Below, piece after piece: positions 7,652 through 62,239 of a stretch of 64,000 nucleotides of DNA. Positions within the stretch are counted from its first letter, which is position 1. Every line of letters starts with the position of its first letter. The DNA lies in the IMG/VR virus record IMGVR_UViG_3300020213_000019; one strand, 5' to 3'. The DNA is from an uncultured virus (IMG/VR IMGVR_UViG_3300020213_000019) (taxonomy: Duplodnaviria > Heunggongvirae > Uroviricota > Caudoviricetes). The notes below the pieces were generated by a model that did no database searches, had not been told where the DNA came from, and saw only the letters and a program-made list of their open reading frames with translations. The position numbers and the translations under genes are program-made.

Positions 7652-7927
7652 GTGACTGAAAAATTATGTTCTTGGTTTCGCATCCATCATACGTATCGTC
7701 GTGAAACGAAGCTTAGAAAAGATTTTCAATGTGATTGCTCAGTAACTGTTTGGCAATCTGTGATTGATGGAATGATGGTGATATCGATCACAAGACTTGA
7801 TCCATTTTACGATATTCAAATTAGATTTGAGCCAACAACTTTAGAAGACGCCCTCAATAAGGCCGATCAACATTTGATAGATATGGATATACCATTTATT
7901 CCTCGAAAATTTGAGGTAATGATATGA
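7652..7927 (+). CDS. hypothetical protein, tail RKFEVMI (family C)
   Basis: ORF; A..AD..L...IP.IP.K tail block. Confidence 0.7.
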   Translation: MTEKLCSWFRIHHTYRRETKLRKDFQCDCSVTVWQSVIDGMMVISITRLDPFYDIQIRFEPTTLEDALNKADQHLIDMDIPFIPRKFEVMI

Positions 7928-8439
7928 CGTTCTATATTAATGGATCGTATACGTATGGAGGGTCTTTGCGTGGGCCACGTTGCCCTGAATGTGGAGATTA
8001 TCCATCGCCTTACAATGATAAATATTGGCACTGTTATGGCTGTGGCGCCGGGAACGTAAGAATGACCTTTAGGAAAAATGAGCGTAATGAACAGGTAAAA
8101 GTTTTGTTCTCCAAGCTTCTCAATAGGCTCGGCCACCGATTCGACACTGACTGGACCGCTGCCTATTATGTACGCAGTAAAGAGGAAATACCAGATCCAG
8201 AACTAATCGATTGCTATCAACTTACTTGCAAGGTTTGCAATATGAAATTTGATATCACATTGATCGATTCTGTAGATGAAAAATATGCATTATGGCATGA
8301 CCACACAAGTTTTAGAGCAATAGCTAGAGCTTTCGCTAAATATGAGCCGATTCAAATACGTATTAATGAAGATCATCACGGAAGAAAATTGCACAAAATG
8401 CACCCGTGCGTGTGCTCAAGTCTAAACATCTTGTTATAG
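7924..8439 (+). CDS. Zn-binding hypothetical protein, LGH family, tail CSSLNILL
   Basis: CPECG..CYGCG plus RLGH..W..CKVC..C. Confidence 0.75.
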   Translation: MTFYINGSYTYGGSLRGPRCPECGDYPSPYNDKYWHCYGCGAGNVRMTFRKNERNEQVKVLFSKLLNRLGHRFDTDWTAAYYVRSKEEIPDPELIDCYQLTCKVCNMKFDITLIDSVDEKYALWHDHTSFRAIARAFAKYEPIQIRINEDHHGRKLHKMHPCVCSSLNILL

Positions 8440-43661: not shown

Positions 43662-44048
43662 TCAGCGAAAGTGCCTAACTACCGCAGCTTTATGAGCTAA
43701 CTTCTCAAGTCCGTCTCGACTTACAAGTAACCCGTCTATGCGGTGCTGTTCAGATATGTTAACGGTTATGTTTACAAGCTCGGATTCGTGATTGACTATT
43801 CCGGCCTTACTAGTTTCGTAATTGATATCAATGTAATGAAAATGTTTAAGTTGAACAGCTTCTCGATCGATTCTTTGTGGACCATCCCAAGCAATAGTAA
43901 GCCTAGTTATTGACGCGTGGTAATGACCAAGCGTTTTAGTACATAGAAAGTACGTTTCATTACCAGAGCGATATTCAACATAAATCTTACCACCACATAC
44001 GTAGCAATTTTTTCTTTCTTTTAGAAATTGCTGTAGTGTAATGATCAT
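43662..44048 (-). CDS. CxxC..C..HY family protein
   Basis: CYVCG...CTKTLGHY. Confidence 0.7.
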   Translation of the reverse strand: MIITLQQFLKERKNCYVCGGKIYVEYRSGNETYFLCTKTLGHYHASITRLTIAWDGPQRIDREAVQLKHFHYIDINYETSKAGIVNHESELVNITVNISEQHRIDGLLVSRDGLEKLAHKAAVVRHFR

Positions 44049-44578
44049 AGCAATACTAGAAGCCTTCTAGCACTAGGATCATTACTAAGGAATTCGATGA
44101 GTTCATTTTTTGCTTCTTCTGGTAGAGTTCGCACTAATTTAACAAAATGTTTGCCTTCTATTTTGCGATTAGTTTCCATCAACGATATAATAAAATGCGC
44201 ATTTTTCGTTTTCATTACCATCTGCGATGAGTAACGAATCGCTCGCACTTCACATTTTTTATTCATGACGGACAGGTTGCCAAGAGCTTGTCCGAAAACA
44301 TACGGTCTGCTTTCCATCGAACCTGATTCTTTAATAAAATGACCAAGTTTTCGTAGGACCAAATTGATCGTTTTAGGATCGGCTCTCTTCTTAAAAGATT
44401 TGAACCAGAAATCAGAACTTAATCGCAAAATCAAGTTGTCACGTCTATCCAGAACTAAATCTTCAATAAAGGTAAGATACCTAATATGGTCAGCATATCG
44501 ATTAATGATTTTGTATAATATGTAGACTATGAGCTGGCAGGCTAATACAATAACTACGGTGATTAGCATAATTTTCAT
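44045..44578 (-). CDS. N-terminally anchored protein, tail RRLLVLL
   Basis: TM at N-terminus. Confidence 0.7.
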   Translation of the reverse strand: MKIMLITVVIVLACQLIVYILYKIINRYADHIRYLTFIEDLVLDRRDNLILRLSSDFWFKSFKKRADPKTINLVLRKLGHFIKESGSMESRPYVFGQALGNLSVMNKKCEVRAIRYSSQMVMKTKNAHFIISLMETNRKIEGKHFVKLVRTLPEEAKNELIEFLSNDPSARRLLVLL

Positions 44579-44674
44579 CGTTCAATCACACCTATAACAC
44601 GTAAAGCCAGTCCACAGCTTATCGACAAATGATAAAAAGGATTAAATCTGCTGCTGATATAGCATCTTTATAGA

Positions 44675-45241
44675 ATGACTTTTATTCGTGAATTATCAGA
44701 ATTTGCAGCCAAATACGCCGAGTTGGCCGAGGCTAAAACTACTCCAGTTTTATCTAAACTGGAAATTGTTAAGCGTTTAGAATTGGCCAATAGTCTTATT
44801 GATCAAGACCTTGGGAATATAAAGCAGAACGAAGAAAGACTTCGCGCCGATCAGGCGGATCCTTCCTATCCAGATGAGTCGAGAGGCCAGCTCGGCATGA
44901 ATTTGAAACGCTACGAGGCTTTGCTAGAGTTCGTCTCGCCATCTCGAAGGGGCATGTATGGTCTGGAAGAGTGGCTTGAAAACGCGCTGAGCAAATTGAG
45001 ATCAATCGCTGCCGTTCCAGACATTGATGATCGTCAATTTCTTCGTGCTTTGCGCGCGCACTTCACAACACTCACTGTCTTTATCGGCAAAGAAAAAGGT
45101 CGTTTGGCTCAGGCAGGAATTCGTTTAGATATCGCAGAGCTATACTCTTTGGCGATGATCCGTAAAATAATTGGTCAGCAAATAGATGCGATTAGCAAAA
45201 CTCCAACCGATGCAGCTTCGATATTAAAGTCGGTTCAATAA
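44675..45241 (+). CDS. hypothetical protein
   Basis: Solitary opposite-strand helical ORF. Confidence 0.7.
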   Translation: MTFIRELSEFAAKYAELAEAKTTPVLSKLEIVKRLELANSLIDQDLGNIKQNEERLRADQADPSYPDESRGQLGMNLKRYEALLEFVSPSRRGMYGLEEWLENALSKLRSIAAVPDIDDRQFLRALRAHFTTLTVFIGKEKGRLAQAGIRLDIAELYSLAMIRKIIGQQIDAISKTPTDAASILKSVQ

Positions 45242-45804
45242 AAATTCTGAATTCGATTTTGCTGCAATTTCTTGATGACATCGTAGTATTTATCAATCGG
45301 ACACGTTCGATTAATAATTACGTTACCACCATCACGAACGATAACTTGGTTGGTCATTTTGACCCACGAGACTGATAGCTTCTGAGATAAATAAGTGAAC
45401 AGCATAGTGGTACATGCATTCACCAGCGCGTACTTGTGTGGATCCACGTCAAACTGAAATGTGAAAGCTTCTTTTAAACCAGGTTCCGAATTTGGAAGAG
45501 AATGTTTAGTGACGGTCATTTCAAGTTTCTTGATGCCCTCGAAGCTGAAAAATCTATGACCGGACGGGACTTTTTGTAACGGGCTGTACGTCATCGTCTT
45601 TGTATTGATAACGAGCCCAGAGAAGCGCTCTGCGTCCGCTCCGCTGTTTAGTGTGATGGTGTCGACACTCCATCTCCCTTCCTGCCCCAGTCCAACTCCA
45701 CTCTTTGTCGTGTCGTACACTACCATTGCAGGCAGCATCATCGAAACGATCAATACAGAGTTTCGCTCATTTAGCTTTTGTTTGAACAGAGTGAGTGAAT
45801 CCAT
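45235..45804 (-). CDS. hypothetical protein, tail NRIQNFY
   Basis: ATG 45804. Confidence 0.7.
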   Translation of the reverse strand: MDSLTLFKQKLNERNSVLIVSMMLPAMVVYDTTKSGVGLGQEGRWSVDTITLNSGADAERFSGLVINTKTMTYSPLQKVPSGHRFFSFEGIKKLEMTVTKHSLPNSEPGLKEAFTFQFDVDPHKYALVNACTTMLFTYLSQKLSVSWVKMTNQVIVRDGGNVIINRTCPIDKYYDVIKKLQQNRIQNFY

Positions 45805-45917
45805 AGCTAGTATGCTACACACACTTCTAAAGGCTGTCAATGCTCAGTCAGCATTGCGCCATCATCGCGTTGCATTTTGCGTCACTGCATTTATAAATGC
45901 GGCAAATTTGTTTTTAT

Positions 45918-45973
45918 CATTCTCCAAAAAGAATACTTTCAGAAGCCTTGCCCTTTAGGGCGAGGTAGTTCAC
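45918..45973 (+). mobile_element. 56-bp miniature derivative of the tnpB element
   Basis: TTTAT, CATTCTCCAAAAAGAATAC fused at ATAC to TTTCAGAAGCC...GTAGTTCAC. Confidence 0.9.
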
Positions 45974-46114
45974 ACCTAGTTGGTAACGATGTTCGTTTTG
46001 AGGTGTTTTGTCACGAATAGCGTTATTGTCACGCCTCACCTGTTTCATTTGTTTGTTAACATAGTAGCCAATAGTTCAGGTAAGTTACTGTTCATATGAT
46101 CAGTAATTATTGGT

Positions 46115-46155
46115 AAAGAAAAACCCCGCTTCCTATTACCTAGGTCGCGGGGTTT
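46115..46155 (-). terminator. intrinsic terminator
   Basis: AAACCCCGC...GCGGGGTTTTTCTTT on minus strand after 46177 stop. Confidence 0.7.
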
Positions 46156-46176
46156 GGAATTGAACTGAGGTAAAGA

Positions 46177-46581
46177 CTAGGCAGCTTTTTGCGTAAGCTT
46201 TGCAGGTTTTGCAGCAAGTTGCCCGCTTTCGCGCTTAGCGCGGATTTTCTGGCCGCAATGATTGCAACGCGGAACCATGTCTTCTTTTCTCGCCATTTTT
46301 CCTTTGTAAATTCCGCCATTTCGGCCCTTCTGCATCGTGCAGCGATCGTACGATTTGACGAACATCATGACAAACGGGGCACACAACGCCTGGGACAATC
46401 CGAGGAACCGCGCAACCCTTTCTGTAAGGGCCTTGAGCGAGATTTTCTCTCCTTCTTGAAGGTTTTCGATCGCGTGTGCGGTCGCGTCATTCACCTTTAA
46501 AATCACAGAGTTGAGTTTATCCAAGTGAAGTTGAGACACCTTGTTGCTTACTGAGTTAGTCGCAGTGGTAGCCATTGTCAT
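46177..46581 (-). CDS. basic hypothetical protein with CxxC
   Basis: AAGGAA RBS; KGRNGG, RCNHCGQ. Confidence 0.7.
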   Translation of the reverse strand: MTMATTATNSVSNKVSQLHLDKLNSVILKVNDATAHAIENLQEGEKISLKALTERVARFLGLSQALCAPFVMMFVKSYDRCTMQKGRNGGIYKGKMARKEDMVPRCNHCGQKIRAKRESGQLAAKPAKLTQKAA

Positions 46582-46784
46582 CGTTCCTTGTTGGTGGGTA
46601 AAGCTCGTCACGGTTTCGATCGAATATTCGCCCGAGCGTCCCCCATACACGTGCAAACCAGAGGCCAGTTTGGAATGGCGTCGAAACAGTTTTCCCCAAT
46701 GTCAGAAACACAGTAATGGATTGGGCACGAATGTCATGCGTTCTTTGTCATCGCTAGAAAAGTAAGCTCGGGAAACCGAAATAA

Positions 46785-47081
46785 TCAAGTCATGATTAGA
46801 AGGCGCTCACAAAGAGACATTCTGCCGTACGGTTTTATGGTCCCGTTTACATGGGCTACCTGCGTACTATTCAGATAAACGGCCGCAATTTTGGCATGAG
46901 TAAACATCGCCATGTATTTCTTACAGTGTTCACACTGTGCGTAAATACAGTGTTCATCTAGACCGACTATCTCATCAGAGATATTTACCCATTTGTGACG
47001 TGATGGCTTTACAAGCTCACATTGTAAATAATCAGAAAAGATAGTTTTCCAATTTAACTGAGGATTAACAGGCGTTTGCAT
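46785..47081 (-). CDS. LGH-like family, tail CERLLIMT
   Basis: RHKW..CEHC..C(-8). Confidence 0.7.
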   Translation of the reverse strand: MQTPVNPQLNWKTIFSDYLQCELVKPSRHKWVNISDEIVGLDEHCIYAQCEHCKKYMAMFTHAKIAAVYLNSTQVAHVNGTIKPYGRMSLCERLLIMT

Positions 47082-47335
47082 AAGGTTTTTTCTTTATCTA
47101 CTAATTGAATACTTATGTTTTTCTTTGTCGTGAATTTCACTTGGCCGATGACGATCCCCTCTGCTGTATAGAGGGCATTCATTTCGCTGTTGAACCGTAG
47201 CACATCCCCACACCTTGTGCATTGGGCCGGGTACTCAAGCCAACCGTACGCATAAGCTGGAGGAAGTATTTTCAGCTTATGCCGAGTGACAGCCTCAGCT
47301 TTTACATAGATATCTTTGATTGATACTGTTTTCAT
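47054..47335 (-). CDS. LGH-like family, tail CKRLLILS
   Basis: RHKL..CTRC..C(-8). Confidence 0.7.
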   Translation of the reverse strand: MKTVSIKDIYVKAEAVTRHKLKILPPAYAYGWLEYPAQCTRCGDVLRFNSEMNALYTAEGIVIGQVKFTTKKNISIQLVDKEKTLCKRLLILS

Positions 47336-47973
47336 TTCATGACTAGAAGCTTTTGTACTTGCGGATATGCTTCTAGTTTTTTGATCAATAATTCCCAGCT
47401 GATATCGTCATCTTTTTCAATGGCAGCACGGGCACGTACCAGTTTGTAGAATGGTACTGGGTTGGTCAGATGAATATTGGAAGCTAGCAATGCTTTTGAT
47501 CCGGGCATGTTTTTTTCAAACGCCAGAAGAAGAGGAGCATCAATATTTATTCGTTTGGAATGAGTCGAGTAAAGCGACGAGGTAATTTTGAACAAATCGG
47601 TAAGTATAGAGCTTGCTAAGTTGCATGCTGATGTACTGTTTATGTTACCGATACCCATCAAGTTCTTGCCGTTGGCCTCGCCATCTCTTAGTTTGAGCAT
47701 GTAATCAAATGCTTTATCTAAGATTTTATTAGCCGTATCTTCAGCAAGCGCCTTTGTGTTTAAAAGAATACCCATATCTGTTATGAAGTTAATTGCTCTT
47801 AAACTTGTGTTTATGAACGTAATAACTTTATAAATATCGGTACTGCTACTATGAACAAAAGCGATTCCGTTGTCTGTTCGACTACTTACAGGGAATCCGG
47901 GTTTACCCAGCGCATCTTTAGATGCTGCCAACCTAAACTCATTGAATTTTTTTATAGTGTCTTTACCGATCAT
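47332..47973 (-). CDS. hypothetical protein, tail QKLLVMK
   Basis: 213-aa ORF. Confidence 0.75.
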   Translation of the reverse strand: MIGKDTIKKFNEFRLAASKDALGKPGFPVSSRTDNGIAFVHSSSTDIYKVITFINTSLRAINFITDMGILLNTKALAEDTANKILDKAFDYMLKLRDGEANGKNLMGIGNINSTSACNLASSILTDLFKITSSLYSTHSKRINIDAPLLLAFEKNMPGSKALLASNIHLTNPVPFYKLVRARAAIEKDDDISWELLIKKLEAYPQVQKLLVMK

Positions 47974-48016
47974 TGGAGTTTCTGTAAACTTATAAGAAGA
48001 AAATAGTTCTCACTAG

Positions 48017-48334
48017 TCATAACATATTAGTAAATCTAGTACATAGGCTTTTTTCGTTACCAACGAATTTAGAAAGGTTACTGCCTGCGAACTCACCAAG
48101 AACCATTTCGCCAGCTACCACTTCCCATATATAGATTGCTTTATTGTTCACAGAGCGTAACGATTTTTGAAGCCTTATTTCTCTTTTACATGATTCGCAT
48201 TTGGTTTGAAGTCTTGGAGAAATATGCGGTCTAGGCCCAACAATCCATTCGCCTGGTTTGTGACCTAATTTTTTAATATGCATCAGAGCGTTGTCTTTTA
48301 GCTCATTTATTATTTTAAGTTCTTCTTCGTTCAT
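48017..48334 (-). CDS. LGH family, tail CTRFTNML
   Basis: KLGHKPGEW..CESC..C(-8). Confidence 0.75.
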   Translation of the reverse strand: MNEEELKIINELKDNALMHIKKLGHKPGEWIVGPRPHISPRLQTKCESCKREIRLQKSLRSVNNKAIYIWEVVAGEMVLGEFAGSNLSKFVGNEKSLCTRFTNML

Positions 48335-48340
48335 GGTAAC

Positions 48341-48784
48341 CTATAAAAATGAAGCGAATTTCGGACAGTAAGGAATGTTCTCTCTATTGATCGTAACATC
48401 TTCTAAAAATCCTTTACTAATACCGAAAGACAAATAAGGTGTCCAAATACTATTGGCTTTGTTAGAATTTACTACACCTACGTTATAGTGTTTCCACTCT
48501 GGATTAGGGGCCGAGCACATCTCGGCGCCAATGTTTATTCCACAGCGACCACAAATAACGCTTGTACATAAGAATGTTCGGCCAGGATGACCAACGTTCA
48601 ATGATTGATTTATAGCTGTAAATTTGTGATATCGTTTGTCGAAATATTGCCTCAACAGATACGACATAACTTCATTCGATTCCCACTCTGGATTTATTGC
48701 GTGAACAGTCGACCACGCTTCGTTGAAGTATTCTCTGTCTAAGGCCATTTGTGAAGTATCTGCAAGCATCGTAATGCTACTCAT
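48341..48784 (-). CDS. LGH-like family, tail CPKFASFL
   Basis: RYHKF..CGRC..C(-8); TGTCGAG at 48800-48806(-). Confidence 0.75.
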   Translation of the reverse strand: MSSITMLADTSQMALDREYFNEAWSTVHAINPEWESNEVMSYLLRQYFDKRYHKFTAINQSLNVGHPGRTFLCTSVICGRCGINIGAEMCSAPNPEWKHYNVGVVNSNKANSIWTPYLSFGISKGFLEDVTINRENIPYCPKFASFL

Positions 48785-48810
48785 CAGTTCCGATGATCAC
48801 TCGACACGTC

Positions 48811-48852
48811 AAAAGAAAAAGGGCGGCGAGCTTTTTGGTGCTCGCCGCCCTT
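48811..48852 (-). terminator. intrinsic terminator
   Basis: GGGCGGCGAGC-loop-GCTCGCCGCCC-TTTTTCTTTT on minus strand. Confidence 0.8.
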
Positions 48853-48869
48853 GAGATAGTCTTTTGTTT

Positions 48870-49232
48870 TCAGAAAATATAACGTCGTGGGGCGACTGTA
48901 TTGGCTTCGTTACCAGATTTTGGCTCCTTGTCATCAAAGGCGCCCGTTTCTTCCTGGATATTTATCACATCGCCGAGGTCAAATTCATTGACCCAAGCAA
49001 TAGCCTCTATATCATCAATGATGACTTCGCAAAGTGCCGGAAGGTTCATCATCTGAAATTCAAGAGACAGAAGCTCGCCAGCTTCGCTGGGTGTAGGTGC
49101 GGGTGGGATCATGCAGTACCGACCAGAAGCCGGACCCACAATAGGAGCTGATTGCTCCTCTAAACGAATTGCCTTCAACTTTCGCTGGGATATCCTTGTA
49201 GGGATATCAGTTGGTACTGGTTTAGATTTCAA
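48870..49232 (-). CDS. hypothetical protein
   Basis: Flanked by TGTCGAG (49274) and a terminator. Confidence 0.6.
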   Translation of the reverse strand: MKSKPVPTDIPTRISQRKLKAIRLEEQSAPIVGPASGRYCMIPPAPTPSEAGELLSLEFQMMNLPALCEVIIDDIEAIAWVNEFDLGDVINIQEETGAFDDKEPKSGNEANTVAPRRYIF

Positions 49233-49337
49233 TTCAGCATCCTATTTTAATTAAGGAGGCCCGCCACGACGGACTCGACAAGAGGGACAGATGGGGACTT
49301 AATCAGATATCTCAATATTACTAATTAAATAACCGAT

Positions 49338-49712
49338 TTAAGTCAAAACTTTGAGTCGTTCGCAAATGAAAAACGGGTCCGGTTTCTGATCCATGTGTGA
49401 TTCCCAAATTGTAGTAATTACAGGCCTTTGCATGACAGATTTTTGGTCCATCTCAGCTATGAGAGGGTTATGCGTAAACGTGCGCACATCGGTCATCTGC
49501 ACGTGACTTAGCTTTATTTCCGAGTCTCCAGCAGATTGAATGCCAAACTGCGTATGACAAGTCAGGCATTTGCTGACGTGCGTTATAGACATACCTATGG
49601 AAATACCGCTAAGTTTCCAATCAGTAAGTTTATGTCCCAAACGTTTAAGTATCACGGTTGCAATGGTAATCATACTATCACCATAGTCATTCAAGTGAAA
49701 TTCTGCATGCAT
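49338..49712 (-). CDS. LGH family, tail CERLKVLT
   Basis: KRLGHKLTDW..CLTC..C(-8). Confidence 0.75.
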   Translation of the reverse strand: MHAEFHLNDYGDSMITIATVILKRLGHKLTDWKLSGISIGMSITHVSKCLTCHTQFGIQSAGDSEIKLSHVQMTDVRTFTHNPLIAEMDQKSVMQRPVITTIWESHMDQKPDPFFICERLKVLT

Positions 49713-50068
49713 GAGCAGTAAGTTTCGCGCGGAATTTGAAGGTATATGCTTCGGTTTTTGTTAAGCTCATTGGTAATTCTATCCTCCATACCTTCCAGAT
49801 TAGCGTCTTCTTCTGAATCTTCACTATCTTTGAACGTGACCTCAATGAGTCCAGTGGTTTCGTAATCTCCAGCCTTCATGGCGAACATTGAATAAAATTC
49901 ATTGTGCTGCTTAAGTCCAAAGATCAGACTGCACCCTTGTTTCGTGCAGGAACAGTGAGCAATGGAATTGAAAAGAGGGTTAGTAGACTCGGCCCATTCA
50001 CATGGTTCATGCCCGATACGACGCAGAACGTTGTGACATACGCGCTTCATAAGCTCTTCGCGTTTCAC
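49691..50068 (-). CDS. LGH family, tail CSCMQNFT
   Basis: GTG start overlapping upstream stop; RRIGHEPCEW..CTKQGC. Confidence 0.7.
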   Translation of the reverse strand: MKREELMKRVCHNVLRRIGHEPCEWAESTNPLFNSIAHCSCTKQGCSLIFGLKQHNEFYSMFAMKAGDYETTGLIEVTFKDSEDSEEDANLEGMEDRITNELNKNRSIYLQIPRETYCSCMQNFT

Positions 50069-50403
50069 ATTAGTAACTCCAGTTTTTGCGGGACGATCTT
50101 GTAACCTAGGCATTCTAATTCTTGGTCTACTACCCGCTGCGCATGCTGGACATCCACTTTCCACCCTAGTCCGCGGCTCCCGATTTCCAGGCTTAGTGCA
50201 GGAAAAGTACCCTCTATTTGTTTCTGACACATTATGGAGTGGGAGTCCCATAGGAAAATCGCCCACGACCACTGGAGTGATGCTGGTGTTCTTAAAGTTA
50301 AAGTTGCGCATGTCACCCTAATTTTCTGACCAAAAGCTTCTCGATAAAAATGTTTGTAATGCTGCTCTTCGGCAGCCTCATGCCAAGGTAAGGCTAACAA
50401 CAT
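50065..50403 (-). CDS. family C protein, tail QKLELLM
   Basis: AQRVVDQELECLGYKIV block. Confidence 0.7.
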   Translation of the reverse strand: MLLALPWHEAAEEQHYKHFYREAFGQKIRVTCATLTLRTPASLQWSWAIFLWDSHSIMCQKQIEGTFPALSLEIGSRGLGWKVDVQHAQRVVDQELECLGYKIVPQKLELLM

Positions 50404-50406
50404 CGT

Positions 50407-50922
50407 TCACAACCACGTTCTTATTTTCTGGCAATAGTATTTCTGCTTGATCGTAGACAGCTTTCGCTTGATCACTTCGTCGGGGTCGGGGCCTTCTTCG
50501 TCGTCAGGTAATGGAGTAGCGCCAGGTTTAACAAGCTGAAAGAGATAGTTGGTTAAAGCATTAGTAGTATTGAAGTCTCTCGGGCCCAACATACAAATAG
50601 TCTTTTTACTCACTTTAGGACCCGTGTCCCATTTCCATGCTCGCTCCACCTCGCAGGCTGGCTCTACAACGATTTCTACAAGGTTCCAGTCCTGTTTCCA
50701 GAAGCGACCAATCTGAGCCTCCTTGGACACACCAGGGTCACCACAGATGGCGAATGGTTTCTTGCAATGGCGACAGAAGGCAGTCAGCTGCATTCCGGGC
50801 CATGAGAATGTTTCAAGCCAGTTATCAGTCGGTAAGGCATGACCAAGCTTGCGAAGAATATATCGCGAATACTTGATGAGACTTTCTTTTGAAGCGCCTA
50901 TGTTTTCTTTATCTTCGTTCAT
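50407..50922 (-). CDS. LGH family, tail CQKIRTWL
   Basis: RKLGHALPTDNW..CRHC..C(-8). Confidence 0.75.
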   Translation of the reverse strand: MNEDKENIGASKESLIKYSRYILRKLGHALPTDNWLETFSWPGMQLTAFCRHCKKPFAICGDPGVSKEAQIGRFWKQDWNLVEIVVEPACEVERAWKWDTGPKVSKKTICMLGPRDFNTTNALTNYLFQLVKPGATPLPDDEEGPDPDEVIKRKLSTIKQKYYCQKIRTWL

Positions 50923-51263
50923 ATCATCACCATAAGTCGATCATCAATTACTTTAATTCCAGATTTTATCATCTCGTCATCAATTAGTTTTTTAGCTTCA
51001 TCAATGCTGTTAGCGTATCCATAACTAACGGCAGCTATCAAGTTGCTGTTTACCCTTGGGTATTGGTATCCAAACAAATCATTATCTTCAGGCCAAATCT
51101 GTGGAGCCCAATCTTTACTGGCTTGGTGAATGCTTGAATGACTTTCCTCATTCAAAGGATCATCGGACAACCGAAGGTCCCGATACCACATGAAGCTCAT
51201 ATTAACTGAAAAATTAGGCCTTTTTTGCCTTTTTTTAAAAAGACAAAGGTCTTCTCCATCCAC
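50919..51263 (-). CDS. family C protein, tail DRLMVMI
   Basis: AKKLIDDEMIKSGIKVI block. Confidence 0.7.
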   Translation of the reverse strand: MDGEDLCLFKKRQKRPNFSVNMSFMWYRDLRLSDDPLNEESHSSIHQASKDWAPQIWPEDNDLFGYQYPRVNSNLIAAVSYGYANSIDEAKKLIDDEMIKSGIKVIDDRLMVMI

Positions 51264-51276
51264 GGAAGAGCGATGA

Positions 51277-51759
51277 TCATAACAGAACCTTTAGATAAGA
51301 GCACAATACCCATTCCATACGTTCACTTTTAGTAAGAGCATGAAGCATATAGTTTCGATCTAGAGCTTCTTCAAGGTACGTAGTTGGCTCCATAGAAAAT
51401 AAATTTAGTTGCGAGCCGAATCGTCTATTATTTACCGATTCGTCAGTCTCTATGTTTGCTATGTAGTAGCATGTTTTTGATAGCTGATGCTCGAATACTA
51501 TGTCGTCACGGGGTTCTGCTGGAAATAAACATGAGAGTTCAAAATTACAATATTCATCGGGTGATAATATGAATTCGTGTGCACAGCCAGCTCTTTCACA
51601 TCGACAAGTGTATTCAACCAAACCGTGATTATGTTCGTCAAAAATAGGGAGCCAATGCATGTTAGTAACAACATGACCAAGCAGATCTAAAATTTCGTTA
51701 GATCTGAGTTTCACGTCGTTTTTCAACTCAATTATTTTAGACAACGAAATCTCTCGCAA
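51277..51759 (-). CDS. LGH family, tail CSYLKVLL
   Basis: LLGHVVTNMHW..CERAGC..C(-8). Confidence 0.75.
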   Translation of the reverse strand: MREISLSKIIELKNDVKLRSNEILDLLGHVVTNMHWLPIFDEHNHGLVEYTCRCERAGCAHEFILSPDEYCNFELSCLFPAEPRDDIVFEHQLSKTCYYIANIETDESVNNRRFGSQLNLFSMEPTTYLEEALDRNYMLHALTKSERMEWVLCSYLKVLL

Positions 51760-52112
51760 ACAAATTCTTCTGGAAGATTTTTGATATACGTTTTGAACTC
51801 TTCATCTATCATACACGTACCAGATTGAGTAACGGTATTTCCACGTCCGTCTAGTGGGCTGACTGTGAATTCAAAGAAGTCGTAATTGAAATGCATTCTC
51901 CAACACTGACGCTCTTCGCGCCCATTCCAAGTTGTAGATGTTTTTTGAAAAAAAACTTGTTCATTACAATTTTTATTCAGACAGCTTATGCTGTATTGTC
52001 GTGCTGCTGATGTTCCGTGGCGTTTCCATTTATTTGTCTTATGACCAAGATGTATCAATACCGATTCAGCAGAAGATTTAGCAGTAGAGATGGGCTGTTT
52101 GATGTGAACCAT
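51732..52112 (-). CDS. LGH family, tail CERFRCLK
   Basis: HLGHKTNKW..CLNKNC..C(-8); start estimated. Confidence 0.7.
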   Translation of the reverse strand: MVHIKQPISTAKSSAESVLIHLGHKTNKWKRHGTSAARQYSISCLNKNCNEQVFFQKTSTTWNGREERQCWRMHFNYDFFEFTVSPLDGRGNTVTQSGTCMIDEEFKTYIKNLPEEFVCERFRCLK

Positions 52113-52125
52113 ATCTCGGTATACT

Positions 52126-52347
52126 TTAATTTGACTGCGTGTTTTTACCGACATTTGGATTGGCGGAATGAAGCATTCCGCAGGATGGACAAGAGATGCA
52201 GGTAGGTGTGTCGGTTGGAATTGTTTTACTGGATTTCTTAGAACAACGAATGCATATAAGCTCAAATTTAGCGAAGTCTATCTTTTTGAATACTCCGCTC
52301 AGAACACTAGGAACAAATGATTCATCAATCGGATCTTTTTCTTCCAT
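52126..52347 (-). CDS. small Zn-ribbon protein
   Basis: CIRC...CPSC. Confidence 0.6.
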   Translation of the reverse strand: MEEKDPIDESFVPSVLSGVFKKIDFAKFELICIRCSKKSSKTIPTDTPTCISCPSCGMLHSANPNVGKNTQSN

Positions 52348-52360
52348 AAATACACTTCCC

Positions 52361-52939
52361 TCATGTCAGTACACGCAGACGTGGACAATAGAACTCGTCA
52401 TTTACAGTTCCTTCCATCTCACAAGTCTCAAAAGAATCGATCGGAATATTTATTCCACGCTCAACCCATTGCTGCCCATCCGTCTCGTTCTCGAAGACTT
52501 TAGTGTAAGCCACAGGGTATTCTTTCAAGACATTGACATCATTAGGAATTGGATCCATCAAAGAAAAAGAAGCGTGTAGAGCCTCTCTAGGATTGCTTGG
52601 AGCATACAAACGGCCGTAATTGATTTTGTATTCTTGGACATGCAATATGGCTAATCCTCCTTCATCCTCCCAAGATCGTTTAATCTCGATCTTCTCACGG
52701 AGAAGGTGAATTGTTTTATCGCATCTAAGGCACTGGGCTTTCCAATGCTCCTTAGCGTGAGGTTCAGCGTTTTTCCCGACCTGTGGAATTAACGCGAATT
52801 CTCTCATCTTGTGACCAAACTTGCGAAGAAAGATATTCGCAAGCGATGGCGCAAGCTCAAGACTATTTGCTATAACCCAACGATCATAATGAGTTGGGGC
52901 TCGAAGCTCTTGTGCAAATTCGTTCTTATTTTTGGCCAT
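52361..52939 (-). CDS. LGH family, tail CPRLRVLT
   Basis: RKFGHKM..CLRC..C(-8); TGTCGAG at 52968-52974(-). Confidence 0.75.
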   Translation of the reverse strand: MAKNKNEFAQELRAPTHYDRWVIANSLELAPSLANIFLRKFGHKMREFALIPQVGKNAEPHAKEHWKAQCLRCDKTIHLLREKIEIKRSWEDEGGLAILHVQEYKINYGRLYAPSNPREALHASFSLMDPIPNDVNVLKEYPVAYTKVFENETDGQQWVERGINIPIDSFETCEMEGTVNDEFYCPRLRVLT

Positions 52940-53144
52940 TCTTATAAATGGCTACGAAGATGATCCACTCGACATCTAATCGTCACAAAGAACTGGCCTA
53001 GTTATCCAGTCCGAATTTTTAGGTGACACCCAATTATCATCAATTTTTATCGTGTCGTCATCAATTAACTTCATAACCCCAATGATTATGACCAATGACA
53101 CGAGCAACTTCGTACGTAGAAACGTTACGTACAAGATCGATAAT

Positions 53145-53327
53145 TCAAATTAGATATAGGAGAACAATAATGACTACGGCAACGAGCGCAAGCGTCAATA
53201 CGAACATGGCCGTTTTCTTAAAAAAGCCCAAAAAGAATTTCGCTACGAAAGCCTTAATAGTTTTCTTGATAAGCGGCCAAAGAACTTCTTTAGCTGCCTT
53301 GAACAGTAACTGTAGAATTTGTTTCAT
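53145..53327 (-). CDS. small membrane protein
   Basis: GAGG RBS, amphipathic helix plus TM. Confidence 0.6.
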   Translation of the reverse strand: MKQILQLLFKAAKEVLWPLIKKTIKAFVAKFFLGFFKKTAMFVLTLALVAVVIIVLLYLI

Positions 53328-53751
53328 TGAATTCCTCTGACGAACGTTTGGTTTCGGTGTCGATGTTAATGAAATGCGAATCGGCGCTCATCGTAATCTT
53401 CCTCACCGTTTTATCGTTTGGAAAGAATACGCATGTATTGGTTGAAGTGTTATACCGCAACTTTCCTGCAACCTCGACTGCAAAATCGTTCTTTTCCTCA
53501 TCGGTAAAGAACCCCAATTTCAGTTTGTAGTCCATTGGGTTATCGTCAACAACGATGTGCATTGAGCCATTGGCATACTCAACAACGTCATCGTAATTGA
53601 GTAAAAACTTCTTTACCAAATACTCGCGGTATTCAATATCGAAATCGACATCCTCACCCTTTAGGTGGCATTCCGGGTGCCCGGCAAGGACAAAATATTC
53701 ATGTGCGCGTTTGTGTTCTGAATCGTTCAAATTGACAGGAACGTAACTCAA
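53290..53751 (-). CDS. hypothetical protein
   Basis: GGAGG RBS before TTG. Confidence 0.7.
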   Translation of the reverse strand: MSYVPVNLNDSEHKRAHEYFVLAGHPECHLKGEDVDFDIEYREYLVKKFLLNYDDVVEYANGSMHIVVDDNPMDYKLKLGFFTDEEKNDFAVEVAGKLRYNTSTNTCVFFPNDKTVRKITMSADSHFINIDTETKRSSEEFNETNSTVTVQGS

Positions 53752-53848
53752 TGGAACCTCCGATGAAATTGTAAACCGTTTTAACTACAGAGCATCGATT
53801 TAGACGTATCGACTTTTCGTTTTGTAAAATATTAAATCGTAAGAATAA

Positions 53849-55021
53849 TCAGTAGTATCGATTATTATAATACATTAATTCGCTCAACTCTTTTGAGTTG
53901 ATGGAATACATGTAGTGCTCTGTTGCCTTTACGATTTTGTTTCGTAGACATGCCAGAACATCCTGGGTCATGCTGAACGTCTCGCGATTGATCGCTACGT
54001 TCAGCTCCCCATTATCGAAATTGAATACATACTTAGGAGGATACATCATGAAGATTGGGGGCCTCCCAAACATCATGCTACGATCGCTAATATAGCGATA
54101 TCGATCCCCGCCCGGATAGTACGAATGGTTGTTCTGGCTAAATCCATCACACCGTTTTCTGTATACCGTATGCATCAACTCATCACGATAAGCATTATGC
54201 AATTCTCCCAATGTTTTCTTGTCGTCGAAAGAGTAAGGCATACGATCAATCAGTATAATGAACGCATTTCTGTCGAATGAATCGATAGTGTGTTTGCTTG
54301 GCCCATCTAAATAGTAGCCGTGATGACCGTGCGAATCAACATAGATGTCAATACCAGGAATGGTAGATTTAAGGCTAATCATACTTTCCTCTGGCATGCC
54401 GTATGCGTTTCCATTACCAGAGGTGATGATAGGCCTCGGGTTCCACCAGAAGGTAGCCGTGAGTATTTCTTTTTTAAAGGTATCGTAATCTACAGGCTTG
54501 ATCGCAATAACAATCTCTGTACCGCTCGGCTTATTGGTTTTTTTGGTAGACATCAAAGCGATTTTACCAACCTGACTCTCATCGATATAAGCCGTGTACG
54601 TCCTGGTCTTGCCAGCAACGGTGGTAATGATCGAGAACGAATCACTGTAAGCAAACGGAGTTTTCGCCCCGATACCAAAGCCACCTGTTTGCTCATTAGA
54701 ACCTCGTTTGGTGCTGGCTCCGTATTGAAGAAACACGTTCTTCATTCTCTCAGGGCTGATGCCATGTCCAAAATCACGAATCCTAAGCTCGCTTGCAAGT
54801 GGCGTAGGGAAATCGATCTCAATCGGAACGTCCCCTTTACCGGCCTCACGATGAGCGTCACGCGCATTGCAAGTGATCTCTCGGCAGATTGCTTTAATAG
54901 GATTAGAGTACAGCTTGCTGCGCAAAATCTCGAATACGAAACCGAGATTATCTGCACCGAATGTTAACTCGTTACTAGTACCTTCCGACTCAACATTAGC
55001 GCCTTCAGCTACAATCTTCAT
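53849..55021 (-). CDS. rIIA-like GHKL (HSP90/MutL-type) ATPase
   Basis: LYSNPIKAICREITCNARDAH, IRDFGHGIS, YGASTK, GGFGIGAK.PF.Y. Confidence 0.82.
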   Translation of the reverse strand: MKIVAEGANVESEGTSNELTFGADNLGFVFEILRSKLYSNPIKAICREITCNARDAHREAGKGDVPIEIDFPTPLASELRIRDFGHGISPERMKNVFLQYGASTKRGSNEQTGGFGIGAKTPFAYSDSFSIITTVAGKTRTYTAYIDESQVGKIALMSTKKTNKPSGTEIVIAIKPVDYDTFKKEILTATFWWNPRPIITSGNGNAYGMPEESMISLKSTIPGIDIYVDSHGHHGYYLDGPSKHTIDSFDRNAFIILIDRMPYSFDDKKTLGELHNAYRDELMHTVYRKRCDGFSQNNHSYYPGGDRYRYISDRSMMFGRPPIFMMYPPKYVFNFDNGELNVAINRETFSMTQDVLACLRNKIVKATEHYMYSINSKELSELMYYNNRYY

Positions 55022-55043
55022 ATGGTTAACCAGCTATATAGGT

Positions 55044-55328
55044 ATGTTACATTCAGCGGAACAGGAACCAAAGAAGATTGAGCGCACCGTTAAAGGCTGG
55101 CACATTTCTTTGGAGGGGGAGTATATTCGTATGGTAACTCCATCCGGAACGGTAAGCAAGATCCATTTGGAACAACCTTTACCTTCATACGCCCTAATCA
55201 CTAAAGAGGCGCAGGTATTGACAAAAAGCGGCCCTGAGTACAAAAAGATCCAGCTGATTGGACCTACACTACCACCAGAAGTAGTGAGTTTCATCAAACG
55301 CCTGAAAAAAGCAATCGTCCTTAGGTGA
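55044..55328 (+). CDS. hypothetical protein, tail KKAIVLR
   Basis: ATG 55044; convergent with the downstream array. Confidence 0.65.
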   Translation: MLHSAEQEPKKIERTVKGWHISLEGEYIRMVTPSGTVSKIHLEQPLPSYALITKEAQVLTKSGPEYKKIQLIGPTLPPEVVSFIKRLKKAIVLR

Positions 55329-55815
55329 GATTCAAAAGGCTCCGCATTTTGCCGATGATTTTATCCAAGGAACTATCGAACTTAACAACGCGTTCGAATA
55401 CGACCTGAAGGCCATCGCACTGAATAAGAGTGTCTTCTGAATGTACGAATACTGAACCGCTACCAATATCGATCGTTCTGTAGCATATTTCAAAATAAGC
55501 ATTCCCTTTGCGATACATGCGCATATCCCACCGCCTACACTCATCACCAACTACATTGGCGTCAGGGTAAGTTGCGCTGGGCCCTACCAAATAATGCTCT
55601 TCCTCGAACCGCTGATAGAAATGACTAGAGGTCATTTCTGATTCAGGCGGTTGCCATGGAGCATAAAGATGCTTTCCTTTACCAGGAATAGAATCAATGC
55701 AATATAAGATACGAGTAAAGTATCTTTTACGGGTAGAACATGATTGACTGGCATCACCAACAGGACCGTTACATATGGGGCAATAACCGAAAGCTGTTTT
55801 ATCTGTCCATTCCAT
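55321..55815 (-). CDS. CxxC..HY family, tail RSLLNLT
   Basis: CPICN..C..HFY. Confidence 0.75.
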   Translation of the reverse strand: MEWTDKTAFGYCPICNGPVGDASQSCSTRKRYFTRILYCIDSIPGKGKHLYAPWQPPESEMTSSHFYQRFEEEHYLVGPSATYPDANVVGDECRRWDMRMYRKGNAYFEICYRTIDIGSGSVFVHSEDTLIQCDGLQVVFERVVKFDSSLDKIIGKMRSLLNLT

Positions 55816-56333
55816 TATGTGAAGTGGAGAAGGCGCTTCGCTTTATTGTAGACTTCTGTATAATTGTCTACAGTTAGCTTTCCAGGATTCCAGATGCCAG
55901 GCACATTTAGAGTGCGCCAATTACCTTTGGCCGTTACCTCTGTCAGATCAGTATCGCTTACTACTTCGCCGGGTCGTACTTTTGCACTATGGGTATATTC
56001 AACCAGCAATAAGTATTTAGACGGATGAGTCTCTGCTTGTTTAACACGATGCTCTTGTCTATAGGCAACTCTATGAGAGTTCATCTTCATTTTCATGAAT
56101 TTATGAGTCACTTCAAAGAAATGAGCTTTTGACTGATGAGATGAAAGGATGTTCTTCCTGGCAGGATATTTACCGCATAAGCGAACCAATTTACGGTTGT
56201 CGATGCGATTATCGGAACCATCCTTTTCGATGAAGTCGATTAATGCAGAATTGCAGATCGGGCAAGTCTCACGATAGAGAGGAAAGCAATCGGGACTAAA
56301 CACGCTTCCGGGCAGACAGGGTACAAACGACAT
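55815..56333 (-). CDS. CxxC..HY family, tail KRLLHFT
   Basis: CPICN..C..HFF. Confidence 0.75.
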   Translation of the reverse strand: MSFVPCLPGSVFSPDCFPLYRETCPICNSALIDFIEKDGSDNRIDNRKLVRLCGKYPARKNILSSHQSKAHFFEVTHKFMKMKMNSHRVAYRQEHRVKQAETHPSKYLLLVEYTHSAKVRPGEVVSDTDLTEVTAKGNWRTLNVPGIWNPGKLTVDNYTEVYNKAKRLLHFT

Positions 56334-56345
56334 GTGCGCTCTATA

Positions 56346-56717
56346 TCACTTAAGGTGTGATAATCTCTCTATGTTATGCATCGTAGTTTCTATGTCAATG
56401 AAATCTTTCACAACATAATGAAAATCATAATTGCTATGACCATTATAGAAGATTGTCATTTTAGGCTCACCTGTAACTCTACTGTGTTGCCTATACTCTA
56501 TTTCTAATCGATCTATACTGCCTTCATAGTCTTCTGTTTCAATCCAAATAGTTTGAACTGATGGTCCGTTAGGGAAAATTTTTAGTCGCTCTGTAAAATG
56601 AGCAAAGCTGAGGTCCCTACAATCTCGGCTAAAATGCTCTTTAGGTGTTCTAAACCATTCCTCTAATGGCTTGGTGCACACCGGGCAGTGTTCGTATGTA
56701 ACGATCGTTTCAACCAT
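56346..56717 (-). CDS. CxxC..HY family, tail ERLSHLK
   Basis: CPVCT..C..HF. Confidence 0.75.
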   Translation of the reverse strand: MVETIVTYEHCPVCTKPLEEWFRTPKEHFSRDCRDLSFAHFTERLKIFPNGPSVQTIWIETEDYEGSIDRLEIEYRQHSRVTGEPKMTIFYNGHSNYDFHYVVKDFIDIETTMHNIERLSHLK

Positions 56718-56719
56718 GA

Positions 56720-57112
56720 CTAGGACATCAGCGTAACAAGTTTTTGAAATGAATGGTATTTTTTAACAACGCCATCGATAGATGAGTCGTTAATCTCTAC
56801 ACTACGTTTGCTAGGGAATTTTTGAATCAAAAAAGCATCACTTCGATCTGGATTACGATAGCTCATTCGTTCAATGGAGAAACATAATGCTGCATGTTCG
56901 TAATCGTCATACGAGAATACTTCTACCATTTCGTTCATTCTAATGCAAACGTAGTAGTGTGAGTATGATAAATATTCAGTATCGTAATCGTAATCTTCGT
57001 TAAGCATCAAACAGGATCGTTCACTGTTTGAATAAAAATGTTCTTTGGGCGGCCCTAGTGATGATGCGCATATAGGACACCGAGCTGGTAGGTCTTGTAA
57101 ATCGAAATTCAC
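56720..57112 (-). CDS. CxxC..HY family, tail QKLVTLMS
   Basis: CPICA..C..HYY. Confidence 0.75.
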   Translation of the reverse strand: MNFDLQDLPARCPICASSLGPPKEHFYSNSERSCLMLNEDYDYDTEYLSYSHYYVCIRMNEMVEVFSYDDYEHAALCFSIERMSYRNPDRSDAFLIQKFPSKRSVEINDSSIDGVVKKYHSFQKLVTLMS

Positions 57113-57453
57113 AAAAACACCTTTGCTTTTTCCAGCCTAGACCAATCATTGGTAATAACGAATCTAGTCAACAGTTTTTCATCCATGCCAACGAAGCTGG
57201 CAATACCTATCATGACAGAAGCAACTATTTCTCGCCTCCAGCTCATACTGGTTTGCTGGTGTTTAATAACAACACTACGACTGTTACCCTCTATGGTATA
57301 CATGCCTACGTATATTTTAGCCTCGGCCTCTATTGTTTTATTGAAGTCACTTAATTGTATTGGGCCTTGACGTAACTCATAGTGACATGATTTGCACGGC
57401 TCGGTGATGCAAAAATCGTCTATGTTGTCACATATTGGGCAACGAAAATTCAT
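57109..57453 (-). CDS. CxxC family, tail EKAKVFL
   Basis: CPICD..CKSCHY. Confidence 0.72.
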   Translation of the reverse strand: MNFRCPICDNIDDFCITEPCKSCHYELRQGPIQLSDFNKTIEAEAKIYVGMYTIEGNSRSVVIKHQQTSMSWRREIVASVMIGIASFVGMDEKLLTRFVITNDWSRLEKAKVFL

Positions 57454-57803
57454 GCAAGGATTGCCCATTTAATGTAGTTATAAATGAAGAACATAATCTC
57501 TGCATCTGAAGCAAGACGTTTGAAGTATTTTGGTTTCGACAAACCGCCAGTGAAATTTACCATAGTTATGTTTGATGGAGAATATCTCGCAACAGATATG
57601 GGACTTACTCTATCGTTGAAATACTCTCTGTAATTACTGCCATTTTTCATGATTACAGCCATATAGTGAGGCTGAATATCATCACCGCATTTAAGAGAAT
57701 ATTCTTTATCAGAAAAGAAGTTAACTTTATTTATCGGCGCGTGACAGACAGGGCACGTAAAACCAGCGCACGACATAAACTCGGGAGTATCTTTTTCATT
57801 CAT
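57450..57803 (-). CDS. CxxC..HY family, tail IKWAILA
   Basis: CPVCH..C..HY. Confidence 0.75.
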   Translation of the reverse strand: MNEKDTPEFMSCAGFTCPVCHAPINKVNFFSDKEYSLKCGDDIQPHYMAVIMKNGSNYREYFNDRVSPISVARYSPSNITMVNFTGGLSKPKYFKRLASDAEIMFFIYNYIKWAILA

Positions 57804-58117
57804 AGCATGACCAATAATTTTTTACATCGATTAATGGCATATAGGATATCTTCAAATTGAGTCTGGCCAGTTTTCATAATAACTAAACCGTCATATTTGA
57901 TTTTAGTTGTATTATCAGAAAAACGACGGTTTAGAGTTATATGCCCTACCTTTGTAAAGTCAGAATGAACACCGAATCGTATGTAATGAGAACTATAATT
58001 TTTAGAAAGCGGGTCACAAGACTTAGCCTCTTTGCTTCGTTTACACGCAAAGACAGGCTCTCCTCCGAAAAGGTCGCCCTCAGTTAATTCAGATTTACAT
58101 ATAGGACAGGTTAACAA
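57800..58117 (-). CDS. CxxC..HY family, tail KKLLVML
   Basis: CPICK..C..HY. Confidence 0.75.
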   Translation of the reverse strand: MLTCPICKSELTEGDLFGGEPVFACKRSKEAKSCDPLSKNYSSHYIRFGVHSDFTKVGHITLNRRFSDNTTKIKYDGLVIMKTGQTQFEDILYAINRCKKLLVML

Positions 58118-58413
58118 AGAACTCCTAATTTAGAGAGTCCAGTTATGTATCTCAACATATCGACATCTTTGATGTTTGGTTTTACAGTTTTGACCAGAGA
58201 TTCGTTAATGTAAATTTTAGTTTCTATAGGACCAGTGCCCAATAGTTTTCGATGAATCATTACATTATTTACGAGTTAGAAATCTTCGGTAATTCCAACG
58301 TCGAAAATAACGGCGCGGTAATGATCGGGCGTAGGCGTACTGGTCGTACAGTGACCACCCATTCTTGGATATCCACTATAAGTTAAGGGCGCCCCACATA
58401 GAGGGCACTTCAT
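58111..58413 (-). pseudogene. CxxC..HY family member with internal TAA, tail SKLGVLC
   Basis: MKCPLCG..C..DHY..EDF* then the same frame continues; stop at 58276-58278. Confidence 0.75.
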
Positions 58414-59107: not shown

Positions 59108-59108
59108 G

Positions 59109-61883: not shown

Positions 61884-62239
61884 TAAAATTCACCTTTCAT
61901 AGAGAAAGGTCGCGCCACTTTAGTCTGCTCGACAAAATGAGATTTGGCTTTCAACGATGTAAGACAAAGACATGAGGGTTTAGAAAACCTACATGTAGTC
62001 GTAGGCTACGAATTTTTAACAGAGCCCATGGATATTTTAACTTAAAATAGTAATTCCGCGCCGAGCTAACTCGACAGTTCCTAATTACTCAGCAGTTACG
62101 ATGGTTTGCACTAAATTTTACAGCTCGAAATTTCCAAACTGCACCTAAGTACTCGTAACTATAGGTGTTTCTAAGCTAATTATTTAGAACGCATTTCCAC
62201 TAGTAAAATAAACTTTATCAAAGTATAATAAGTCTTATG

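Follow-up and report, generated by a model that had tools for sequence, protein, structure and literature searches.

The LGH proteins are an undescribed family of small proteins, defined here from their sequences, which occur as old and diverged copies in arrays of an uncultured giant phage and a relative. The best explanation is that they serve as accessory proteins in one huge-phage clade, where they form an old family. The description of the family is well supported, and the mechanism set out below is one that we infer.

Family members and sequence layout

The window, which is the whole stretch of 64,000 nucleotides analysed here (IMG/VR record IMGVR_UViG_3300020213_000019), contains 11 LGH ORFs, ten in one array and an outlier at 7924. 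The syntenic 435-kb phage G005 carries 34 intact copies, 25 of them in one array against 10 intact array copies in the window, and the gene order of the array is shared by both genomes. The members and their neighbours in the window are as follows.

52361..52939, minus strand: LGH member, the first of the array; 192 aa, insert 111 aa
51732..52265, minus strand: LGH member; longest ORF 177 aa, a later start called in the database gene giving 126-140 aa; ortholog P0016
51277..51759, minus strand: LGH member; 155-160 aa, knuckle C-x4-C
50407..50922, minus strand: LGH member; 171 aa, seven orthologs including G005 32437; AlphaFold2 model with pLDDT 72.8
49691..50311, minus strand: LGH member; 206 aa, N-terminal extension with an extra CxxC that is kept in ortholog P0019
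49338..49712, minus strand: LGH member; 124 aa, ortholog P0025
48341..48784, minus strand: atypical LGH member (YH); 147 aa
48017..48334, minus strand: LGH member; 105 aa, orthologs P0018, P0022, P0028 and G005 40635; AlphaFold2 model with pLDDT 90.3
48260..48262, minus strand: codon for the invariant His25 (48017 protein), the putative first ligand
48188..48199, minus strand: codons for the knuckle Cys46-x2-Cys49 (48017 protein), which would supply ligands 2 and 3; both Cys invariant, in the turn between strands 42-46 and 52-62
48017..48043, minus strand: Cys98 of the 48017 protein (putative ligand 4), seven-residue tail and stop codon
47054..47335, minus strand: atypical LGH member (RH); 93 aa, best match G005 41328
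46785..47081, minus strand: atypical LGH member (RH), the last of the array; 98 aa, best match G005 41603 (weak)
7924..8439, plus strand: outlying LGH member after the ribonucleotide reductase gene; ortholog P0015
50919..51263, minus strand: non-family gene within the array, same tail
50065..50403, minus strand: non-family gene within the array, tail-like end
47332..47973, minus strand: non-family gene within the array, 213 aa, one Cys, same tail
48870..49232, minus strand: tail-less gene within the array, synteny marker (G005 38836)
46177..46656, minus strand: gene that ends the array in the window and in G005 alike, used as a synteny marker (counterpart G005 42203, 57% identity)

The outlier at 7924 encodes either 171 aa, in which case it begins with a C4 ribbon, or, from the second start, 125 aa, and G005 has two LGH members at the equivalent position. 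No promoter excess was found within the array.

The sequence-only reading had proposed a layout in which a His precedes a C-x2-4-C knuckle and the last Cys lies exactly eight residues from the end. All 11 ORFs, each at the position given above, have it, with C-x2/4-C as the knuckle and seven residues after the last Cys. Its details were looser than proposed: the strict [KR]LGH motif occurs in just 4 of 11 members, with x[LIF]GH in 8 and RH or YH in 3; the Trp expected after the His lies 2-7 residues downstream in 8 and is missing there in 3; and the insert, put at about 35-110 aa, measures 40-111 aa in the window members (35-128 aa for the middle part across 54 sequences). The N-terminal helix and the tail are basic (K/R 19% and 22%, respectively, over the same 54), and net charge is positive in 44/54.

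The Cys eight residues from the end, Cys(-8), is present in 11/11 members and in 2/93 other genes of a greedy 104-gene window set, which contains at least one shadow ORF replacing a real plus-strand gene at 38126. When ORFs below 320 aa were selected by the N-terminal pattern alone, Cys(-8) was found in 8/8 against 5/84 in the window (p=1.4e-8), three of those five being RH/YH members, and in 22/26 against 16/520 in G005 (p=3e-25), where the pattern selects 29 ORFs in total, 23 of them with Cys(-8). A chance origin is thus ruled out. A side effect of an overlapping start codon was also rejected, an open-frame start being present there in 13 of 44 cases and none in 31.

Among the 54 LGH sequences, only four columns are invariant, namely His, Cys, Cys and Cys; the G005 rows of this set were picked partly by Cys(-8), so that the N-terminal-only pattern serves as the independent test. 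This invariance makes one His/Cys3 metal site likely, probably for zinc. In the confident model of the 48017 protein (pTM 0.80), Cys98 stands immediately before the ordered terminal helix, and the knuckle sits in a beta-hairpin turn, as it does in the 50407 model (strands 43-49 and 56-61 around C50/C53). The zinc staple of the earlier reading is therefore backed as a putative site by invariance and modelling, and His, CxxC and Cys(-8) very probably bind one structural zinc. The ligands would not come from two local knuckles, since the His and the last Cys are separated by 35-128 residues plus the knuckle. Cys3His ligation is also found in the clusters of CDGSH/mitoNEET and IscR, so that iron, a [2Fe-2S] cluster or disulfides could take the place of the putative zinc; this is highly improbable, given that mononuclear zinc ribbons typically carry a CxxC at the turn of a beta-hairpin, that the 54 members have no CDGSH match among the Pfam matches listed, and that inspection by eye revealed no obvious signal peptide in the 11 window members.

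Stable middles in an old array

Both models share the order of helix, knuckle hairpin, beta-meander, variable part and terminal helix, and in both the first part of the insert extends the beta-sheet of the core. Most of each model aligns to weak templates, of which many are common to the two, such as 4l9c_A (Z 4.2, 89 aligned, rmsd 3.6; Z 5.7, 113 aligned, rmsd 4.9), with best structural Z values of 5.2 and 5.7, and Foldseek against PDB and viral structures returned no match at E<=0.001 for either. No family match for LGH proteins was obtained in VIA-align, the ESM Atlas, PDB sequences or NCBIfam (two members tried). Pfam and PHROGs gave no family for 26 window proteins and the 54 members (best single-member E values 0.0009 and 0.0006), and no weak match was common to two members. 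GenBank phages had no real match to P0030, and fused longer forms were absent among 5809 candidates, which is weak evidence. Neither the family nor its tail was found described in the literature, in which subscription journals were thinly covered; the supplements of PMC7824862 and of a huge-phage structure database (bioRxiv 10.64898/2026.10.24.761521) could list the family.

The earlier reading had likened the family to antibodies, with a constant zinc-stapled scaffold presenting a hypervariable insert without visible similarity. The dissimilarity stands between paralogs, whose inserts, 35-128 aa long across the 54 sequences, could not be aligned (z over 55 pairs averaging 0.15 and reaching 2.84 at most) except for the first strand after CxxC, with a hydrophobic residue at +4 in 54/54 and at +6 in 85%. 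It does not extend to orthologs, whose inserts align (15 pairs, z 4.7-31, 24-57% identity) and hold invariant residues. Inserts evolve faster than the scaffold (identity 0.33 against 0.45-0.62), and copy number is unequal in the two genomes, both of which would suit an insert that is actively diversified or exchanged. Nevertheless, gene order is conserved in G005, insert strands extend the core sheet in the two models, and SNVs show no excess in inserts (inserts 4 over 2130 nt, the remainder of the same genes 4 over 2319 nt, from contigs of patchy cover and related habitats). No long direct repeats occur in 44500-56000 (longest 29 nt or less), and RVT_1 (PF00078) has no match in G005, rated 100% complete, while a control finds it in 3/14 genomes. 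The middles differ between copies but stay stable over time, and the family is therefore not antibody-like; active diversification or exchange is largely refuted and very unlikely. Constant ends flanking a variable middle are also seen in diversity-generating retroelement and antibody-like scaffolds; unlike the retroelements, LGH has no reverse transcriptase match in G005, no template-like repeat and ortholog-stable inserts.

Recent expansion within the genome was rejected as well, as window paralogs do not cluster on the tree (10 changes against 10.2 in shuffled trees), which is a quick tree from 126 of 321 columns with most branches lacking support. When IF1 was compared to look for the host, the best pattern-limited matches listed came from Cyanobacteria as well as Actinomycetes, with identities of about 45-59%. 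No tmRNA was detected in the window or the G005 pieces.

The C-terminal tail and a proposed mechanism

The tail, an eight-residue terminal motif, is not specific to the family: it ends 30/104 window genes and 62/639 G005 genes, including 22 and 35 non-family genes, respectively. Tail scores are equal inside and outside the family, and when internal positions are scored with a profile built from the 57 non-family tails, 40/44 tails of the family pattern exceed the 99th percentile of those scores. The tail keeps a constant distance to the stop codon on proteins without detectable LGH similarity, including the 213-aa one-Cys protein, and a 177-aa non-family carrier has an ortholog that retains it at 29% identity. 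Judged by their sequences, the non-family carriers appear independent of the LGH family. Above 300 aa, the strict pattern occurs in 0/13 window and 0/101 G005 proteins, while the profile accepts two from G005, with lengths of 381 and 401 aa. In the sole tandem two-unit protein (n=1), the internal unit retains the Cys and loses the basic residue at +2 and the large hydrophobic residue at +6. Three proteases of the ClpP family and one AAA ATPase resembling PAN/FtsH are encoded in G005, their own C-termini lacking the tail, and this genome has no match to a ClpX/ClpA-type ATPase.

The explanation that we favour, tentatively and at slightly less than an even chance as a whole, is that the LGH proteins are zinc-closed accessory proteins, each a paralog-specific binder, with a shared terminal tag read by one partner. 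The site would be zinc-ribbon-like, its fourth ligand being supplied where the last helix is capped; this would close the chain and hold the tail beside the core. With less confidence, each paralog may use its sheet to bind a fixed target of its own during host takeover or counter-defence, and the tail may serve as an address tag with a single reader for all carriers, perhaps a protease or an AAA machine, by analogy with substrate adaptors; co-occurrence of genes makes the ClpP-family proteases and the AAA ATPase of G005 candidate readers. The ordered tail helix of both models would also fit a purely structural role, which counts against the address tag. A bolder version, rather improbable in our judgement, is an F-box/SOCS-box-like repertoire, in which dozens of small proteins would dock by one C-terminal tag on a single ClpP/AAA machine encoded by the phage, to which each would bring a host target of its own, for instance a defence protein; LGH would be the largest set, its zinc site split over the whole chain to hold the tag on a new fold.

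Two other readings of the tail deserve consideration. On the same fold and metal site, it could act as a C-terminal degron, many early accessory proteins being short-lived, in which case the paralogs would be independent and would recruit nothing to a tail reader; its fixed terminal position, its basic-hydrophobic composition, the near restriction of carriers to small proteins and the phage-encoded proteases agree with this. Degrons are usually exposed and flexible, whereas the modelled tail is an ordered helix leading from a putative metal ligand and badly placed for protease threading, and we regard a degron as unlikely. Alternatively, the tail could be no more than the final core helix of a fold that LGH proteins share with many further small proteins, the family being zinc-ribbon nucleic-acid binders or transcription factors, in line with the ordered terminal helix, the basic ends and positive net charge, a match to the T4 MotA C-terminal domain that is weak and within noise (Z 4.1 and 3.8), and the proposal made for the phage G expansion in PMC7824862. 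However, the same tail at the same stop-codon distance on the dissimilar 213-aa and 177-aa proteins, together with the single tandem protein, speaks against a mere core helix, which seems a doubtful account.

Most huge-phage genes are unexplained, and about a tenth of G005 ORFs end in this one motif. The partner of the tail, once found, would place dozens of genes in one shared pathway, and a closed 100-residue frame tolerating middles of 35-128 residues is relevant to scaffold design. In the largest tail-carrier family, the His/Cys3 site is split in an unusual way, and Pfam, PHROGs and the PDB contain no match to it.

Comparison with known systems

SPO1 Gp53 is a phage adaptor-like protein of ClpCP, small, docking on the AAA+ protease and altering its activity (PMC6873191). 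Its likeness to the LGH proteins, whose docking is conjectural, is a functional analogy, and Gp53 is a single protein for which the abstract of that paper describes neither a shared tail nor a paralog array.

The C-x4/5-H...C-x2-C knuckles (DUF1660/PF07874-like, and LGH plus CxxC repeats in long bacterial proteins) also combine helix-GH, Trp and CxxC. Their fourth Cys lies just before GH or inside the repeat, whereas that of LGH comes 35-128 aa later and position -5 from the His is Leu in 28/54. The other PhoH-related phage records G001, G002, G004, G006 and G007 contain just one classical knuckle, in G004, which the LGH HMM matches at 19.5 bits. Among the long proteins with such repeats, 10 are matched by this HMM at E<=0.001. 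PF07874 is absent among the matches listed for the 54 members (25 of 29 weak Pfam matches), and its one sub-threshold match in G005 is distant from any LGH member. A link by permutation is a lead only.

Bacillus phage G has a lineage-specific zinc-ribbon expansion of about 35 copies, proposed as nucleic-acid binders or transcription factors in PMC7824862; judging from their pattern, we infer that gp32-35 belong to it. The LGH HMM has no match in the phage G genome JN638751, where none of 14 small proteins scores above 4.8 bits, the value of gp35, which is also the top viral fold match (E 0.18, TM 0.27, non-significant). Phage G proteins differ in having all ligands clustered near the N-terminus and no Cys(-8), and the C-terminal end common to gp32, gp34 and gp35 is a different tail from that of LGH. 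The likeness is that of a jumbo phage encoding dozens of small zinc-ligand paralogs.

Genome setting and membership of the LGH family

Judging from the ribonucleotide reductase, sigma factor and many small genes without known function that it encodes, the window comes from a huge phage; the best GenBank matches of the reductase are uncultured phages of 462-635 kb, and near-identical DNA is present in microbial-mat and freshwater metagenomes. A relative genome of 434,688 bp (G005) is syntenic with the window, with core proteins about 45-79% identical.

The eleven ORFs of the LGH family (7924 on the plus strand and ten array members at 46785..52939 on the minus strand, named by start coordinate) were confirmed where the sequence-only reading had placed them, and in their alignment four residues are invariant, namely His, Cys, Cys and Cys. 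The last of these, Cys(-8), stands in 11 of 11 members vs 2 of 93 other window genes. Since these residues had served to define the family, Cys(-8) was tested out of sample in G005, where a pattern of the N-terminal part only picked 29 among 1428 ORFs of at least 70 aa, 23 of them with Cys(-8). Two of the remaining six are broken array members, one split over two frames and the other ending four residues early:

L039:6892-7361, broken array member, G005
L039:17689-18069, broken array member, G005

Among G005 ORFs bearing the C-terminal tail motif, x-[KR]-[LFY]-x-[VIAN]-[MLF]-x-end, Cys(-8) was found in 20/20 with the N-terminal pattern vs 7/42 without it, and all seven have His...CxxC with a variant sequence preceding the His. 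A 54-sequence profile detected 34 intact copies in G005 (32 of which were themselves in the profile) plus two broken ones, and no twelfth copy in the window; 25 of the 34 sit in one 16-kb array with the same neighbour gene at its end as in the window. Searching 1.84 billion database representatives with a profile built from the window's 11 members gave 29 matches. Of these, 8 are self or near-self sequences, 10 are long repeat proteins, a class of which three sequences were inspected, and 11 are new members, every one carrying Cys(-8). The LGH family is real and without earlier description. An origin of Cys(-8) as a by-product of an overlapping start codon was rejected, as the overlap does not account for the Cys.

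A hairpin element of 37-42 nt also occurs six times in the window (357, 7561, 15432, 32648, 39121 and 45933). An IS605/TnpB-like gene, present in full, and its two fragments have three of these copies at their ends, and the other three are stand-alone; the copy at 45933 attracts high contig depth.

32663-33988, full IS605/TnpB-like gene
53-412, fragment of IS605/TnpB-like gene
15179-15373, fragment of IS605/TnpB-like gene

Putative metal site and the insert

Only four columns are invariant across the 54 sequences, spaced His-14/44-Cys-2/4-Cys-35/128-Cys-7-end (6 instead of 7 in two aligned rows). The AlphaFold2 model of the 105-aa member (48017; pLDDT 90.3, pTM 0.80) runs through helix 3-22, a hairpin around C46/C49, three more strands, a short helix, C98 and helix 99-104, and the 171-aa member (50407; pLDDT 72.8) has the same opening and terminal helix. 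Because exactly four ligand-type residues are invariant and the terminus is ordered, they likely form one His/Cys3 site, for which zinc would be the likeliest metal, and alignment and models make the zinc staple proposed by the sequence-only reading probable. Neither model matched a known fold (best Z 5.2 and 5.7, both under the tool noise level of about 8) or gave a Foldseek match. We infer that a zinc ion very probably ties the chain into a closed form and holds the tail helix next to the core; in the most likely mechanism each paralog would bind one fixed target via its own sheet and loops.

The insert had been read as lacking visible similarity and as the hypervariable part of an antibody-like scaffold. 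The lack of similarity held between paralogs (55 pairs, mean z 0.15), and profile comparison of two ortholog groups confined alignment to the first 61 residues; it did not hold between orthologs, where 15 insert pairs align (24-57% identity, z 4.7-31). Two more pairs, formed with the database homolog P0026, did not align, P0026 being orthologous to a copy in G005 instead. Although less conserved than the scaffold parts (0.33 vs 0.54-0.62 and 0.45-0.53), inserts retain invariant residues. Window and G005 share the gene order 50407/32437, 48870/38836, 48017/40635, 47054/41328, 46785/41603 (a weak match, E 0.005) and 46177/42203; a clear G005 ortholog is absent for 52361, 51732, 51277, 49691 and 48341, and window paralogs are scattered across a poorly resolved tree. 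G005 contains at least four homologs of the array-closing gene (46177-46656), which has a C-terminal CxxC and no family match.

Contigs from 4 of 15 listed runs, with patchy cover and rare variants dropped, list 40 SNVs over 12 kb (8 indel rows apart); the inserts (2130 nt) account for 4 of them, 2 non-synonymous, vs 4 in the 2319 nt that make up the remainder of the same genes. Long repeats were not found, and G005 gave no match to reverse transcriptase. In the models the insert opens with a strand pairing with the knuckle, and the weak templates to which the two models align through the insert are in many cases shared; its opening part is richer in beta-formers and its closing part in helix-formers. 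Ortholog conservation, synteny, SNV density, the lack of repeats and, in G005, of reverse transcriptase, and structural continuity therefore speak against an actively diversified repertoire and leave the antibody analogy unsupported; LGH proteins are old paralogs, one frame with lineage-fixed elaborations, subject to gene gain and loss. The neighbouring rIIA-like ATPase-domain gene (53849-55021; only 390 aa vs a 725-position PHROG profile) holds 14 of the 40 SNVs, 11 non-synonymous, and is possibly decaying or fast-evolving.

The genome-wide C-terminal tail

The tail motif ends 30/104 window genes and 62/639 G005 ORFs vs 0.4-0.5% of internal positions. Scored with a profile from 57 non-family tails, 40 of the 44 tails on family-pattern ORFs exceed the 99th percentile for internal positions. 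Carriers are nearly all small and clustered in accessory regions, with position -8 often Leu or Ile outside the family vs Cys within it. In a tandem two-unit LGH protein of G005 (L039:15749-16642), the internal unit retains the Cys and is without the +2 and +6 tail residues (n=1). The sequence evidence favours a terminal signal rather than a purely structural helix, and this genome-wide tail is the thread of greater interest.

In the most likely mechanism one common partner would read the tail, as a docking site (our best guess) or as a degron. Candidate partners in G005 are three ClpP-family proteases, a PAN/FtsH-like AAA ATPase, trigger factor, DnaJ and EF-Tu; no ClpX/ClpA-type ATPase was found there. 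The adjacent ClpP-family pair, the third ClpP-family gene and the AAA ATPase lie at 246.5-258.0 kb and 330.3 kb. Elsewhere G005 encodes a TubZ-like tubulin, DnaE, a PARP with a WGR domain and an ADP-ribosylglycohydrolase, and ARAGORN places a CTA-anticodon tRNA, a possible amber suppressor, with three tRNAs of unassigned anticodon at L056:13599-14804.

A second run of small window proteins (55321-63814) has an N-terminal CxxC and later Cys/His, and most end in the same tail; two carry Cys(-8), yet do not match the LGH profile. The protein at 44045-44578 has a KLGH stretch and the tail, without CxxC or Cys(-8), and its G005 ortholog (29% identity) likewise ends in the tail.

Comparison with known systems

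The LGH pattern looks in its N-terminal half like a classical Cys-x-His...CxxC knuckle, with the first Cys moved to the far end. A protein of another phage record (G004 L027:1426-2109) has a classical Cys-before-His knuckle, reaches 19.5 bits against the family profile and is a possible unpermuted relative, so that a permutation link may be regarded as a lead. The words 'zinc' and 'paralog' are absent from the main text of bioRxiv 10.64898/2026.10.24.761521. As a phage adaptor on a Clp protease, SPO1 Gp53 sets a precedent (PMC6873191). The zinc-ribbon expansion of Bacillus phage G, with roughly 35 copies (PMC7824862), is not homologous to the LGH family in the tests made, but is similar in kind and the closest described case.
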